Source of the DNA: Clostridiales bacterium
Lineage (GTDB): Bacteria; Bacillota; Clostridia; Christensenellales; CAG-138
Length of the DNA stretch: 64,000 bases
Assembly: GCA_004558825.1 (NCBI GenBank)
Contig: SFDB01000001.1
Span: forward strand, 137,427-201,426
Reading direction: 5' to 3'
The translations under genes and the position numbers were made by a program. Positions 29,794-57,677 of this stretch are shown piece by piece. Within the stretch, counting starts at the first letter, position 1. Each line of letters starts with the position of its first letter. The notes beneath the pieces were generated by a model. That model worked only from the letters and a program-made list of their open reading frames with translations, was not told the DNA's origin and did no database searches.

Positions 29794-29845
29794 AAGTGCT
29801 ATCTGACGAATCATGCGAAAGGCCGCCGCAATCGGCGGCCTGAGA

Positions 29846-30037
29846 CTGTCGAAAAAGTGGCTAAACGCCACTTTTTCGAGTTTTTACGGGTTTCGCCTCT
29901 CGCATTCGCTCCCGGGCGGCAAAACCCGCAAAGTACGAAAACCTCCGGGTTTTCATCCGTTCTTACGCACATGCCGTCAGAGCCGGATTCAACATAAGGG
30001 GCTGTGGCCCCTTAACAGCCCCGGAGTTTTTCGACAG
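29846..30037. repeat. 192-bp structured intergenic element, copy A (perfect 11-bp terminal inverted repeats; MITE-like)
   Basis: CTGTCGAAAAA (29846-56) and TTTTTCGACAG (30027-37). Left-end 12-bp hairpin CGAAAAAGTGGC/GCCACTTTTTCG. A 39-nt core (29895-29933) is identical to 56771-56809. Further hairpins GAAAACC/GGTTTTC and AAGGGGC/GCCCCTT. Confidence 0.8.
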
Positions 30038-30063
30038 CCCCGTCCGTATTGACGATTATTCGT

Positions 30064-36651: not shown

Positions 36652-37779
36652 TTATCTTTTCCTGTGCTTCGGAGCGACTATGACGCGCCTGTTAGGCTCC
36701 TCGCCCTCGCTGTGCGTCGTAACGTATGGATTGCCCTGGAGCGCCGAATGCATAACCCTGCGCTCATACGGATTCATGGGCTCAAGCGCGCGCTGTCTGC
36801 CTGTCGCCTTGACCTGCGCGGCAACCTTGCGTGCAAGGCGGATTAACGTCTCCTCCCGCTTGCACCTGTAGCCCTCCGTATCAACCATAACTCGCTTATA
36901 GCCGTCCTCTTTACGGTTCTTGTTCACATACAGCGAAGCAAGATACTGTATCGCATCGAGCGTCTCTCCCCTGCGGCCGATAAGCACACCCTGCGTTTTG
37001 CCGTCTATGCGCATCATCACCTCGTCGTCGTTCGAGCAGGCAAGCACGTCTGCTTCTATGCCCATATGTCTGACAAGGTCGAGCACGAACTGTGCTCCGG
37101 GCTCGTTTTGCGCAGCTTCCTTCGTATAGTCGATACTCTCGTTGTTGCGCATCAGCTTAAGCTCCTGCCGCTCCCTGCGCCGCGCTCTTACAGGGCGCTC
37201 ACGCTCTTCACCGCTCATCACCTGCTCTGCATCTCCGCTCGGCTCCGCTGCGTTTATCTCAACAGGCGTCGGCACCTTTTCTGCAACAGCACCGGCGTTT
37301 TCCGCTTTAAGCGCGGTCACATCGTTTTCAGGCTCTTCCGTTTTCTTCGGTGCCTCGGGCGATTCGCATCTGTCGCGTTTGAAGCCGTCCTTTGTTTTCT
37401 CGGCACGCGCGGGCCTTTCTCTGCGTTCCTGTATTTCGGGCCTTTCGCATTTGTCCCCGCGCTCGGGGCGTTCGGGCTTTTCTCGCCTGTCGCGCCTTTC
37501 GCCTCTGTCGCCGCTGCGCTCGCGCCTGTCGCGCTGTCTTCCTGCGTCGCCTCTGTCTCGGCGCGCAAGTTCCTTGAAGTCGGGGACTACGACATCCTCG
37601 GGCTCCTTCTGTGTAAGGCGCACCTTTGCGGGCTTCGCGCCTATGCCGAGTATGCCGCTCGTCTCATGCTGCAATACCTCTATTGTTACCTCGTCTATCG
37701 AAATTTCAAGCTGCTTCAAGCCGTTAAATACAGCAGCATCAACGGACTTGCCTGTTGCCTCTATTGTCTTTAGCGTCAT
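36652..37779 (-). CDS. jag: Jag/KhpB (EloR) RNA-binding protein with expanded Arg/Glu/Asp-rich linker
   Basis: Jag_N (MTLKTIEATGKSVDAAV..), then a C-terminal KH (..GVLIGRRGETLDAIQYL..) and R3H (..LEPMNPYERRVMHSAL..). An approximately 150-aa RDRRE/ERPE repeat linker lies between them. Overlaps the yidC stop. Confidence 0.9.
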   Translation of the reverse strand: MTLKTIEATGKSVDAAVFNGLKQLEISIDEVTIEVLQHETSGILGIGAKPAKVRLTQKEPEDVVVPDFKELARRDRGDAGRQRDRRERSGDRGERRDRREKPERPERGDKCERPEIQERRERPARAEKTKDGFKRDRCESPEAPKKTEEPENDVTALKAENAGAVAEKVPTPVEINAAEPSGDAEQVMSGEERERPVRARRRERQELKLMRNNESIDYTKEAAQNEPGAQFVLDLVRHMGIEADVLACSNDDEVMMRIDGKTQGVLIGRRGETLDAIQYLASLYVNKNRKEDGYKRVMVDTEGYRCKREETLIRLARKVAAQVKATGRQRALEPMNPYERRVMHSALQGNPYVTTHSEGEEPNRRVIVAPKHRKR

Positions 37780-40006: not shown

Positions 40007-40177
40007 ATGGCATACGTAATCAATGACACCTGCATTTGCTGCGGCGCTTGCGCTGCCGAATGCCCCGTCGGCGCTATCAGCGAAGGCGATGGCCGCTTTG
40101 TCATCGATCCCGACACTTGCATCGAATGCGGCGCTTGCGCAGGCACATGCCCCGTCGGCGCACCGAACGCTCAGTAA
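40007..40177 (+). CDS. fdx: 2x[4Fe-4S] clostridial-type ferredoxin
   Basis: Not in the ORF track (56 aa): MAYVINDTCICCGACAAECPVGAISEGDGRFVIDPDTCIECGACAGTCPVGAPNAQ*. Two CxxCxxCxxxCP motifs. GGAGG RBS. Confidence 0.93.
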   Translation: MAYVINDTCICCGACAAECPVGAISEGDGRFVIDPDTCIECGACAGTCPVGAPNAQ

Positions 40178-53878: not shown

Positions 53879-55219
53879 ATGAGAAGCTATGTTCCCAACA
53901 CCGAGGGGGAACGTAAGGAAATGCTGTCATCCATGGGGCTCAGCTCCATGGATGAGCTGTTCCGCGACATACCCGACGAGCTTAAGCTCTCAAGGCCGCT
54001 CAATTTGCCCGAAGGCAAGAGCGAAACTGAGATTCGCCGCATATTCCGCGCTTACGCGGAGCGTACAAACGGCTCAATGCCTCTTTTCCGCGGCGCGGGC
54101 GCTTACAGGCATTATATTCCTTCGCTTATCCCTCAGCTTTTGATGCGTTCGGAGTTCTACACGGCATATACGCCCTATCAGGCCGAAATGAGTCAGGGTA
54201 TGCTTCAGGCGATATTTGAGTATCAGACGCTCATGTGCCGCCTCACGGGCATGGACGTTTCAAACGCTTCCGTTTACGATGGCGCGACGGCCGCAGCCGA
54301 AGCAATGCTCATGCTCCGCGACGCAAAGCGCAAGCAGAAAATACTCATAAGCGACGGCCTTAATCCCGACGTCATCGCAGTAATACACACATATGCGCGC
54401 TTTGCCCGCCTTGAGTGCGTATCGATACCGCTCAATTCCGACGGAACGACCGACATGGACGCGCTCTCCGCCAATTCGGACGGCGCAGCGGGTTACATAG
54501 TCGCCAACCCGAACTTCTTCGGCTGTCTCGAAAACATGGACGAAATATCCGCCGCCGTTCACGGCTTCGGCGGACTGCTCGTAAGCTATGTCAACCCCAT
54601 ATCGCTCTCGCTCGTAAAGCGTCCCGGCGACTATGGCGCCGATATAGCCGTCGGCGATGCGCAGCCCCTCGGCCTGCCGCTCAGTTTCGGCGGCCCGTAC
54701 TGCGGCTTCATGTGCTCCACGCAGAAGCTCATAAGAAACCTGCCCGGCAGAATCGCGGGACAGACGAGCGACGCGGAGGGTAACCGCGTATTCGTTCTCA
54801 CGCTTCAGGCGCGCGAGCAGCATATACGCCGTGAAAAGGCTTCATCGAACATCTGCTCTAACCAGATGCTCTGCGCGATAACCGCAAGCATGTACCTGAG
54901 CGTCATGGGACCCGAAGGCATGTACGAGGTTGCAATGCAGAACCTTCAGAAGGCGCATTATCTCCGCGATGGCATAAAGAGCATAAACGGCGCGCGTATT
55001 CGCTACGAAAACACGCCGTTCTTCAACGAGTTTGTAGTCGAATTCGACAAAGATTCCGCCGTTATCAACGCACTGCTCAAAAAGAAGGGCATAGTAGGCG
55101 GCGCGCGCCTTGCCAATTATAAAGACGGCGACAACGGCATTCTCATGTGCGTCACCGAAATGAACACGCGCGAAGAGATTGATGCGCTTATCACGGCATT
55201 GGAGGAGATCACAAAATGA
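53879..55219 (+). CDS. gcvPA: Glycine dehydrogenase (decarboxylating) subunit 1
   Basis: 446 aa. ..[30 protein letters not shown].. is the P-protein alpha pattern. Confidence 0.95.
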
Positions 55220-56661
55220 GAAGCGAATACCCTCTTATATTCGAACGTTCAAAACCCGGCCGCAGAGGCTATGACCTCCCCAAGCTTGATGTGCCCGAGC
55301 TCGACGGACTCATACCTGAGCAGATGCTCAACAAGGAGCCGTTGAAGCTTCCCGAGATAGCCGAGGTCGACCTTGTAAGGCATTACACGAATCTTTCAAA
55401 GCGCAATTTCGGCGTCGACAACGGTTTTTACCCGCTCGGCTCATGCACAATGAAGTATAACCCGAAAATCAACGAGGAAATGCCTGCGCTCTTTAACGAC
55501 CTGCATCCGCTGCTCGACCAGGATATGGCGCAGGGCGCTATAGACATGATGCTCGATCTCGACCGCGCGCTCTGCGAAATAACAGGCATGGACAAGTTCA
55601 CGCTCCAGCCCTCAGCAGGCGCTCACGGCGAATACACGGGACTCATGATAATCAAGGCGTATCACGATATGCGGCAGGATTACGGGCGCAACGTAATGAT
55701 AGTCCCCGATGCGGCGCACGGCACCAACCCCGCATCGGCGGCAATGGCGGGTTATAAAATACGCGAAATAAAATCCGCCCCTGATGGCAGCGTAGACCTC
55801 GACGCGCTTAGAGCTGCGGTCGGCAATGACACAGCGGGTCTCATGCTCACGAACCCCTCGACGCTCGGTCTGTTTGAGCGCAATATAAAGGAAATCGCCG
55901 ATATCGTTCACGAAGCCGGCGGCCTCCTCTATTACGACGGCGCAAACCTCAACGCCATAATGGGCATAGTGCGTCCCGGAGACATGGGCTTTGACTGTAT
56001 GCACATCAATCTCCATAAGACGTTCTCAACTCCTCACGGCGGCGGCGGTCCCGGCTCGGGTCCTGTCGGCGTAAAGAAGGAGCTTATACCTTATCTGCCC
56101 TACCCCGTTGTTATGGGCCATTGCGGCGGCGCGGCAACGCTTGATTACGACCGTCCGCTGTCCATAGGCAAGGTCAAGAGCCTTTACGGAAACTTTGGCG
56201 TTCTTGTTAAAGCATATGCGTACATACTCTCGCTCGGCGGCAAAGGGCTTAAGGAAGCAAGCGAAAACGCTGTGCTCAACGCTAATTATGTGTTTAACCG
56301 CCTTAAGGGCGCATACGGCGTGCCGCATGACAGGATTTGTATGCACGAATGCGTCATAGAGCCTGGTGAGCTCCTCGAAAAAGGCGTGCATACTACGGAC
56401 ATAGCAAAGGCGCTCATCGATCGCGGCTACCACCCGATGACCATCTACTTCCCGCTCATCGTTCACGAAGCCATGATGATCGAACCTACAGAGACGGAAA
56501 GCAGGGAGACGCTCGACGCCTTTGTTGACGCAATGCTTGACATAGCCCGCGTAGCTAAGGAAGATCCCGAATCGCTCCATAAAGCGCCCGTGACAACGCC
56601 CGTCGGAAGACCCGACGAGGTTGCTGCGGCAAGAAAGCCCGTCGTAAAATACGAGGACTGA
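55216..56661 (+). CDS. gcvPB: Glycine dehydrogenase (decarboxylating) subunit 2
   Basis: 481 aa. ..[13 protein letters not shown].. and the PLP-Lys region ..[18 protein letters not shown]... 4-nt overlap with gcvPA. Confidence 0.95.
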
Positions 56662-56690: not shown

Positions 56691-56720
56691 AAATACGGCG
56701 CCTCAAGGCGCCGTATTTGA
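56691..56720 (+). terminator. Terminator after gcvPB
   Basis: AAATACGGCGCC, loop TCAA, GGCGCCGTATTT, then TGA. A perfect 12-bp stem. Confidence 0.8.
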
Positions 56721-56912
56721 GTGTCTAAAAAGTGGCATACTGCCACTTTTTCGAGTTTTTCTCGTGCTTTGCCTCTCGCATTCGCTCCCGGGCGGCAAAA
56801 CCCGCAAAGCACGAAAACCTATGGGGTTTCATACGTTTTGACGCACATGTCGTCAAAGCCGGAATTAACTTAATGTGCTGCAGCCCCTTAACAACCCCGT
56901 TTTTTTCGCAAG
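56721..56912. repeat. 192-bp structured intergenic element, copy B (decayed termini)
   Basis: Collinear with 29846-30037. The 39-nt core 56771-56809 is identical to copy A. The left hairpin AAAAAGTGGC/GCCACTTTTT is retained with a different loop, and the termini differ from copy A at 2 positions each. It fills the gap between the gcvPB terminator and the sigF stop. Confidence 0.75.
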
Positions 56913-56918
56913 CGGATG

Positions 56919-57677
56919 CTAACCCGCAGTCTGCGTATCGCTTTGCGCGGTTTCACGCATTTTTTTCAGTATCTTGCTTTCAAGGCGCGATACCTGCACC
57001 TGTGAAACGCCAATTATCTGAGCCGTCTGGCACTGCGTCTTGCCGCCAAAGAACCTCAGCATAATTATCTGCCTCTCTCTCGGCTCAAGCACGCGGAGCA
57101 GCTCCTTTAGCAGAAGCTTGTTGACGACCTCGCATTCCTCATCTTCATCGCTCGCAACCCTGTCGGCCACGCAGGCATCGGCGTCGTCCGCATAGATGGG
57201 TTCATATATCGACGTATGCGGACGCACGGCATCGAGCGCCATGACTATCTCTTCAGGCTCGCGCGAAAGCTCCTTCGCTATCTCCATTATACCGACATCG
57301 CCGCCCGACGCCATGCTGAGCCGCTCCTTTGCCGCCATTGCCTGCGACGCAAGCTCCTTTAATGAACGGCTCACCTTTATCATGCCATCGTCGCGCAAAA
57401 AGCGTTTTACCTCGCCCGCTATCATTGGCACCGCGTACGTCGAAAAGCGTACGCCAAACGATTCATCGTAATTGCGCACGGCTTTTATGAGCCCGACGCA
57501 GCCTATTTGGAAAAGGTCGTCATATTCAGTGCCGCGGTTCAGATATTTTTTGACTATCGATTTTACGAGCGCGATATTGTGCTCTACGAGTATATCCTGC
57601 GCCTGCGAATCGCCAAGCTTTACCCGTTTTAACAGCCGCAGCGCCTCTTCGTGCTCGAGCGGCGCTCTGTCAATCAT
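56919..57677 (-). CDS. sigF: RNA polymerase sporulation sigma factor SigF
   Basis: Third gene of the spoIIA operon. ..NIALVKSIVKKYLNRGTEYDDLFQIGCVGLIKAVRNYD.. and the region 4 HTH ..QTAQIIGVSQVQVSRLE... Start at MIDRAP (57677). Confidence 0.93.
   Translation of the reverse strand: MIDRAPLEHEEALRLLKRVKLGDSQAQDILVEHNIALVKSIVKKYLNRGTEYDDLFQIGCVGLIKAVRNYDESFGVRFSTYAVPMIAGEVKRFLRDDGMIKVSRSLKELASQAMAAKERLSMASGGDVGIMEIAKELSREPEEIVMALDAVRPHTSIYEPIYADDADACVADRVASDEDEECEVVNKLLLKELLRVLEPRERQIIMLRFFGGKTQCQTAQIIGVSQVQVSRLESKILKKMRETAQSDTQTAG

Follow-up and report, generated by a model that had tools for sequence, protein, structure and literature searches.

Two copies of a short non-coding repeat in a Clostridiales genome and their family in gut Clostridia: duplicated terminator-like stem-loops, IS1182-type ends and conserved hairpins

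IS1272/TnSha1, which belong to the insertion sequence (IS) family IS1182 and are found in Staphylococcus, insert into terminator hairpins without primary-sequence specificity and in either orientation; many of their targets are confirmed terminators located just downstream of genes, and part of the stem-loop is replaced or deleted, with no duplication (PMC4923244, PMC5678879). In the cruciform model of Wan et al., an attack at the 3' feet removes the stem-loop while an attack at the 5' feet would duplicate it (Fig 13, pathway b), the latter being unobserved (PMC5678879). [quoted passage not shown] The present analysis deals with a repeat of ~199 bp, two copies of which (A and B) are located in a stretch of 64,000 nucleotides of a Clostridiales bacterium (contig SFDB01000001.1), hereafter the window; copy B lies between gcvPB and sigF. 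Copy B is most probably the old and decayed remnant of a small mobile element without coding capacity, the relatives of which insert into terminator hairpins and duplicate them whole, and not a purpose-built regulatory RNA. What is new is the family rather than copy B, i.e., an abundant and apparently undescribed MITE of gut Clostridia that targets terminators, duplicates stem-loops and has IS1182-type ends.

Flanking stem-loop duplications across the family

Within the window the family has just two members, copies A and B, which are homologous along ~190 bp, with 84% identity (blastn E = 4e-53). An exact 20-mer of the core matched 69 loci in species-representative genomes, 64 of them being true copies; these 64 loci come from seven related Clostridia or Christensenella-like bins, and SFNQ01 alone accounts for 26. 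A profile made from full-length copies detected ~85 copies or fragments within the 64 true loci, and a scan of metagenomes with the left end gave at least 120 further loci, mostly from human gut. The family total is at least ~100 distinct near-full-length copies across at least ~190 loci, in metagenome-assembled genomes (MAGs) of gut Clostridia and in metagenomes. Many contigs break at the element, as expected since it is a repeat.

Similarity starts and stops at the same two positions in every copy, and an element of ~199 bp is therefore defined, the 199-bp consensus of which runs from CAGAGTGTCGAAAAAGTGGC to GGGGTTTTTCGACAGACTG. The terminal inverted repeats are 15 bp long, CAG(A/T)(G/C)TGTC(G/A)AAAAA, and 11 nt (CTGTCGAAAAA) are perfect between those of copy A. 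The family alignment and the flanking duplications place each end 4 nt beyond the limits first drawn from the sequence alone, leading to a length of ~199-200 bp; on these narrower limits, both copies are indeed 192 bp (29846-30037 and 56721-56912). No open reading frame (ORF) is conserved between copies when the consensus and copies A and B are read directly: the longest frame of the minus strand is interrupted in copies A and B, and a small coding ORF considered in the interior was rejected, not being conserved between copies. The element is thus non-coding and smaller than ~300 bp, with terminal inverted repeats, target duplications, many dispersed copies and a presence/absence polymorphism, i.e., features by which a MITE is recognized.

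Flanking sequences were compared for 95 non-redundant full-length copies, mismatched flank pairs from the first 46 copies being used as control. A direct repeat of 14-30 bp (median 23) abuts both ends in 56/95 copies, while mismatched pairs score 6 in the median and at most 13. Nearly all of these duplications (52/56) fold as hairpins, with a median of -14.8 kcal/mol. The foot of the stem falls at the edge of the duplication, i.e., with 0 unpaired nt, in 39/56 cases on the 5' side and in 34/56 on the 3' side; an A-run, a T-run or both are next to 40/56 duplications, like in intrinsic terminators. In either orientation, the copies occupy the 3' ends of genes (20 convergent, 13 + 11 tandem, 6 divergent).

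The same site is available in a filled and in an empty state. The filled state is that of L168, where a serpin gene and an RsgI-like gene border the element; the 197-nt insert, from CAGTCTGTC to GACACTCTG, has the 23-bp AAAGCGGCTTAAAGCCGCTTTTT on each side. In at least 16 other strains of the same species (L307-L326) the site is empty and reads ...ATC AAAAAAGCGGCTTAAAGCCGCTTTTTT GGTTTTGCGG..., with a single AAAAAAGCGGCTTAAAGCCGCTTTTTT. This comparison shows an insertion into a single bidirectional terminator, with duplication of the 23-bp stem-loop.

The copies of CAKTYU01, a Hadza-derived MAG, are 99-99.5% identical to each other, suggesting recent activity. The MAGs, the orthologous proteins of which are only 60-78% identical, have no insertion sites in common. 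The per-genome consensus sequences are 82-100% identical, and 89.5-100% identical among five multi-copy MAGs and one single-copy bin.

In the other 39/95 copies, different hairpins are for the most part found on the two sides, or a hairpin on one side only; both copies of the window are in this situation. About one third of copies lie between two different strong hairpins (L053, L059:1360-1558, L006:2052-2251, L148, L161, L139 and ~30 others). Possible origins of such flanks are: (i) recombination between copies; (ii) insertion between the adjacent terminators of convergent genes; (iii) a second insertion mode. In L066:128-326 and L027:5217-5374, the right flanking stem-loop carries the loop of the left one in reverse complement (AAA vs. 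TTT), which a simple gap-fill duplication does not predict.

Conserved hairpins and the private stem of copy B

The consensus folds into five consecutive hairpins, H1 to H5, the first of which takes in the left terminal repeat. Covariation was tested on 52 copies, with 500 shuffles and slid controls. The five-hairpin consensus is 97.7% paired; 12 compensated pairs were observed vs. 3.4 +/- 1.0 in shuffles (0/500 reach 12) and 3-6 in slid controls. Independent compensations occur in diverged copies, e.g., CGCAGAAG/CTTCTGCG and GGGAC/GTCCC. The constraint on structure across the family is real; it could reflect selection on the folding of DNA or RNA or, in part, quasi-palindrome correction. No transcribed strand stands out from the G-U and A-C mismatches (145 vs. 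112). Searched against Rfam at gathering and permissive thresholds, the window gave only sub-threshold matches (TD-2, miRNA-like) that track the hairpins, the closest family being TD-2 (RF03162) with 24.5 and 19 bits vs. a threshold of 48.7. Two other pairings were rejected: a long-range stem between an internal end-like sequence and the right end (columns 98-111 / 183-196) shows no covariation, and a pairing of the two terminal repeats shows none beyond a subfamily marker.

On the + strand, H1 is terminator-like in both copies of the window (stem followed by a T-run), and its 5' A-tract, as read from the sequence, makes it terminator-like on the - strand as well. H1 thus looks like a bidirectional terminator.

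The sequence-only reading had proposed that the stem enclosing the invariant core was rebuilt in copy B in a different register, under selection for structure rather than for primary sequence. The two arms, CGTGCTTTGC and GCAAAGCACG, are exactly complementary as claimed, although the 3' arm lies at 56804-56813 and not at 56805-14, and this outer stem is present in the minimum-free-energy fold of copy B. Across the 52 copies, the covariation of this stem is nil (1 pair vs. 1.5 in shuffles, a value attained by 446/500 shuffles), and 50/52 copies leave pair 51:97 unpaired. In the consensus, the stem is already there at 9/10 positions (two G-U pairs, one mismatch, G-A), owing to the imperfect tandem of the 3' region (GCAAAACCCG / GCAAAGTACG, GCAAAGTACG being a near-repeat of the true 3' arm). 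Three substitutions private to copy B perfect the outer stem (G>T at 56765, T>C at 56767 and T>C at 56810), and the first two damage the conserved inner stem of H2. All ten strains checked (99.4-99.9% identity to the window) contain copy B; position 56810 is polymorphic (C/T), with the ancestral T retained in three of them, and 56812 shows a C/T variation in one of the ten. The register shift belongs to a single, decaying copy and is partly unfixed; it is not evidence of a selected rebuilt stem. A constraint on structure is thus supported family-wide by the covarying consensus hairpins (12 pairs), but not by the very stem from which selection had been argued; neither can structure be opposed to primary sequence, which is itself highly conserved.

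It must be noticed that position 56726 (position 10, in the left repeat) is tri-allelic: five strains have A, four have G, and one shares the T of the window, which is unusual at 99.4-99.9% identity.

Several descriptive points of the sequence-only reading were confirmed: (i) the 39-nt core (56771-56809) is identical in copies A and B; (ii) each terminus of copy B differs from copy A at 2 positions; (iii) the GGGGC arm of the right-hand hairpin is gone in copy B, where the 5' arm reads TGTGC (56874-56878); (iv) the left hairpin retains its stem with an altered loop. Decay of the ends is true for copy B, both repeats of which are degenerate; the right end of copy A, GACAGCCCC, is a normal end variant of the family and not a product of decay. 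With 82% identity to the consensus, copy B is second lowest of the 52 copies. Its fold has -62.6 kcal/mol (z = -3.3), vs. -85.5 kcal/mol (z = -6.97) for copy A. The opposition of a functional element to junk does not fit these data, the element being a mobile miniature transposon with copy B among its most decayed members. With degenerate ends, a broken H5, a privately re-paired H2 and no flanking duplication, copy B is probably no longer able to move, and it remains a part of the 3' region of gcvPB/sigF.

The convergent gcvPB and sigF assignments are correct according to the Pfam domains of the flanking genes (Table 1). The gcvT-H-PA-PB operon (+ strand) converges with sigF-spoIIAB-spoIIAA, the genes next to sigF encoding HATPase_c (spoIIAB-like) and STAS (spoIIAA-like) domains. 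Copy B starts directly after a 13-bp host hairpin, as had been read, and this hairpin is the probable original target; the comparison of flanks revealed no second copy of it on the right side. Together with the A5 that precedes it, it is a good predicted terminator for the sigF operon of the minus strand. The right end of copy B is 7 nt before the sigF stop (56919) on the narrower limits and 2 nt from it on the family-defined boundary. From this geometry, sigF transcripts should traverse the whole of copy B before reaching H1 and the host hairpin, and gcvPB transcripts should end at the host hairpin or at H1. Copy A is located between two convergent M3 peptidase genes.

Table 1. Features of the window related to copies A and B, and end sequences compared with those of the element
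Feature	Position	Strand	Sequence or remark
Copy B of the ~199-bp element	56717..56916	+	nhmmer profile match 56719-56907, score 194.5; 82% to family consensus
Copy A of the ~199-bp element	29842..30041	+	92.5% to family consensus; ends GAGACTGTCGAAAAA and TTTTTCGACAGCCCC
Left terminal inverted repeat, copy B	56717..56731	+	TTGAGTGTCTAAAAA, degenerate; family consensus CAGAGTGTCRAAAAA
Right terminal inverted repeat, copy B	56902..56916	+	TTTTTCGCAAGCGGA, degenerate; consensus TTTTTYGACAGACTG
39-nt core	56771..56809	+	GCCTCTCGCATTCGCTCCCGGGCGGCAAAACCCGCAAAG; no difference between copies A and B; H2 loop and 3' arm
H1	56724..56754	+	TCTAAAAAGTGGCA-tac-TGCCACTTTTTCGA; A-tract/stem/T-tract; terminator-like match 56727-56751; covariation in helix 1
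H2, conserved inner stem of the family	56763..56804	+	encloses the core; helix 2, 4 compensated pairs
Outer stem private to copy B	56763..56813	+	CGTGCTTTGC (56763-56772) with GCAAAGCACG (56804-56813)
H3	56813..56830	+	GAAAACC/GGTTTTC type; helix 3 of consensus
H4	56832..56863	+	13-bp stem, TCCGTTCTGACG.../...CGTCAGAGCCGGA type; helix 4 of consensus
H5 remnant	56874..56887	+	5' arm GGGGC changed to TGTGC
Host terminator hairpin, copy B side	56691..56718		AAATACGGCGCCT-ca-AGGCGCCGTATTT; 13-bp, A5 before it; abuts left end of copy B
Host hairpin, copy A side	29820..29841		AGGCCGCCG-caat-CGGCGGCCT; abuts left end of copy A; inverted-repeat search
gcvPB	55216..56661	+	runs toward copy B; Pfam GDC-P and GcvP2_C on identical protein; annotated name GcvPB
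sigF-type sigma factor gene	56919..57677	-	252-aa call; convergent; Sigma70_r2 and Sigma70_r4
Element, left end			CAGAGTGTC(G/A)AAAAAG
Element, right end of copy A, reverse complement			GGGGCTGTCGAAAAAC
L284 end			CAGAGTGTGTAAAAAC at exact tip, vs. CAGAGTGTCAAAAAAG in the element
L237, L238, L242 end			GGGGCTGTCGCA, vs. GGGGCTGTCGAAAAA (reverse complement of copy A right end)
Rhizobium / Enterobacter copies, end			GAGGCTGTGTGAAAAC
L. plantarum copy, end			GAGGCTGTGACATAAG
IS1272 end			GAGTCTGGGACATAAA

Elsewhere in the window, positions 37427-37555 contain overlapping repeats with a period of ~9 nt (TCGCGCCTKTCGCC-like, five copies of a 36-nt unit) within long overlapping ORFs, possibly a repetitive coding segment. 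Two 50-nt copies (40025-40074 and 40112-40161), 82% identical, 87 nt apart and rich in TGC codons, look like a duplicated Cys-rich (ferredoxin-type) motif.

Ends, candidate transposases and alternative explanations

Ends of IS1182-family elements were read from plasmids and viral contigs and compared with the tips of the element (Table 1). The match to L284 at the exact tip is 13/16 nt, the first 10 nt are identical to those of L237, L238 and L242, and the motif GAGnCTGT...GAAAA is common to the element, the Rhizobium, Enterobacter and L. plantarum copies and IS1272. On the basis of these exact-tip matches, the element is filed as a putative IS1182-type non-autonomous derivative. L284:1040-2790 itself (an IMG/VR contig) is an IS1182-family element located in a cluster of REP-like palindromes, with a 4-bp GGCC duplication; it shows the MITE-like end type together with a short duplication in a Proteobacteria-like host.

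The ends are also found around other interiors. Mini-elements (43-45 bp) are made of nothing more than a GTGGC-loop-GCCAC stem between the two terminal repeats, without long flanking duplications (L038:1219-1263, L054:4952-4996, also L155, L160, L164, L169, L183, L208 and L213); they may be either the minimal mobile unit or deletion derivatives. Sister MITE families have the same left terminal repeat and H1 with unrelated hairpin-rich interiors (L125:1605-1830, L138, L205, L208, two copies in L147, and L078:1118-890 on a viral contig); they are also flanked by duplicated host stem-loops, of up to 38 bp (L125), and have no match to an Rfam family at gathering level. The 199-bp element itself contains vestigial end-like sequences (TTTTTCGAG after H1 and GTACGAAAACC before H3), which suggests a composite origin. 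At positions 4-5 the two ends do not complement each other and have the same dinucleotide on the same strand (AG...AG, alignment columns 4-5 and 200-201); one subfamily has TC at both ends, as though the interior had been flipped with respect to the tips (e.g., L062, L056, L042, L032 and L052:5604-5803).

Seven IS1182 transposases used as tblastn queries had no match in the window and ~1.4 Mb of flanking loci; in this DNA, no pair of ends 0.26-4.5 kb apart with a flanking duplication was found, and the long direct repeats 0.6-4 kb apart are only pairs of element copies. The collected loci contain no multicopy ORF. A profile protein search for a partner gave, among the matches listed, only close relatives of the queries, and the 45-nt mini-element searched by blastn against plasmids gave chance matches only. 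ORFs bracketed by inverted repeats were rejected as transposase candidates, being host genes (aspartate aminotransferase, RecF-like protein, pckA). These single host genes lie between two inverted copies of the element, in a composite-transposon-like manner (L038:5796-7659, L055:4220-5908 and L057:344-2916, with aspartate aminotransferase, a RecF-like ATPase and phosphoenolpyruvate (PEP) carboxykinase, pckA, as bracketed genes); L057 is a whole 2.9-kb contig ending in the element.

In the favoured explanation, a DDE transposase acting in trans would recognise the 15-bp terminal repeats and strike host DNA where an extruded stem-loop or cruciform has its two feet; this target would usually be an intrinsic terminator lying between the ends of genes. 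Gap repair would then leave the complete stem-loop duplicated, one copy flanking each end of the element. H1, four more hairpins and the duplicated host terminator would make an insertion at gene 3' ends nearly harmless. The flanks of the family are as predicted by pathway b of the cruciform model. Five points weigh against this explanation: (i) the 39/95 non-duplicated copies need a second insertion mode or later recombination; (ii) the flanking duplication is absent from both copies of the window; (iii) the window and the ~1.4 Mb of flanking loci yielded no transposase whose ends match; (iv) IS1272, the best-studied hairpin-targeting relative, deletes the hairpin without duplication; (v) the interior (82-100% between genomes, vs. 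60-78% for proteins) is conserved far beyond what a transposase should require.

The conservation of the interior across such genomes, the compensatory changes in five hairpins, the terminator-like H1, the presence of copy B in 10/10 strains and two consensus pairs that are U-G on the + strand would all be accounted for by a host-selected structured RNA or 3' untranslated region (UTR) module (terminator, insulator or mRNA stabiliser), mobility being mere arrival, which is the view of the sequence-only reading. This explanation is nevertheless rather unlikely. G-U and A-C mismatches are near balance, copies occur in both orientations relative to genes, and no Rfam family is reached at threshold; copy B decays precisely in its structural parts (H5 lost, H2 broken, z only -3.3) and its private stem has no support in the family; moreover, other families combine the same ends and H1 with unrelated interiors. 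That the compensations are mutational in origin, i.e., due to quasi-palindrome template switching or to hairpin/cruciform repair and multiplied by subfamily inheritance, is unlikely too: independent singleton compensations occur in different helices of diverged copies (L055_5908, L010_4714 and L026), and pairs and pair types, the measures least sensitive to relatedness, exceed 500/500 shuffles and all slid controls. It must be noticed, in favour of such an origin, that the majority of double changes mark subfamilies (10:37 G-C/A-U in 19 copies, 50:89 in 10), that the inverted-loop flanks of L066 and L027 hint at intra-strand copying, and that the three changes of copy B perfect one inverted repeat while harming another.

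A REP/REPIN-like element moved by a single-copy RAYT (Y1 HUH), or an IS200/IS605-type palindrome-associated element, would also be rich in hairpins, intergenic and of high copy number; palindromic mini-units of 43-45 bp exist, and no multicopy transposase was seen in the collected loci. Such systems have, however, neither target duplications nor terminal inverted repeats, both of which are clear here, and the ends match those of IS1182-family DDE elements, so that this origin is very improbable. A mobile element inserting into terminator hairpins thus stays the preferred explanation for copy B and its family.

Significance and comparison with described systems

For annotation, hundreds of «structured» intergenic blocks in abundant gut Clostridia would correspond to one mobile family and not to separate novel RNAs. 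With dozens of independent insertions and a clean filled/empty pair, the family represents what would be a DDE-type element choosing its target by DNA structure, and the cruciform-attack model is directly testable with it. Since each insertion doubles a terminator and adds another one, the element could reshape 3' UTRs and the read-through between convergent operons (e.g., gcvPB/sigF). It is tentatively proposed, as a possibility held with some reserve, that the family is the first well-populated natural record of a structure-directed transposition with duplication of whole terminator stem-loops (5'-feet pathway), with a conserved interior having a further role. This interior may act as a built-in bidirectional terminator or insulator, as an RNA module, or as structured DNA for mobilisation by a possibly single-copy transposase.

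The comparison with IS1272 reveals three likenesses: (i) the element also targets stem-loops, in both orientations; (ii) the tip of IS1272, GAGTCTGG..., is related to that of the element, (C/G)AG(A/T)(C/G)TGTC...; (iii) IS1272 has subterminal terminator-like hairpins just inside both ends. On the contrary, IS1272 is autonomous (1.9 kb, with a transposase of 548-569 aa) while the element has 199 bp and is non-coding, and IS1272 deletes the stem-loop that the element usually duplicates as a whole. Other IS of the IS1182 family (e.g., the viral-contig copy L284 and ISClbu1) have nearly identical termini, CAGAGTGTGTAAAAAC and GGGGCTGTCGCA, but they encode a DUF772 + DDE_Tnp_1_6 transposase whereas the element encodes nothing. 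The Proteobacterial copies examined have 4-bp duplications (GGCC or GACC) and the Firmicute copies examined have none; in the IS1182 family as a whole, direct repeats range from 0 to 60 bp.

Classical MITEs (Correia/NEMIS, RUP, ERIC, Chunjie, MITEAba12) are, like the element, small, non-coding, intergenic and dispersed, with terminal inverted repeats; they differ by duplications of 2-9 bp and fixed length at sequence-defined targets, vs. 14-30 bp, variable and structure-defined for the element. SPRITE resembles the element by its terminator-like stem-loop, their sequences being unrelated; we know of no evidence of SPRITE inserting into terminators or duplicating them. In Cas1-Cas2 and casposon integration, staggered attacks flanking a unit of 14-37 bp, often palindromic, duplicate that unit. 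The likeness to the element is here an analogy only, since those systems rely on Cas1 enzymology with a duplication of fixed length, and their ends are unrelated to those of the element.

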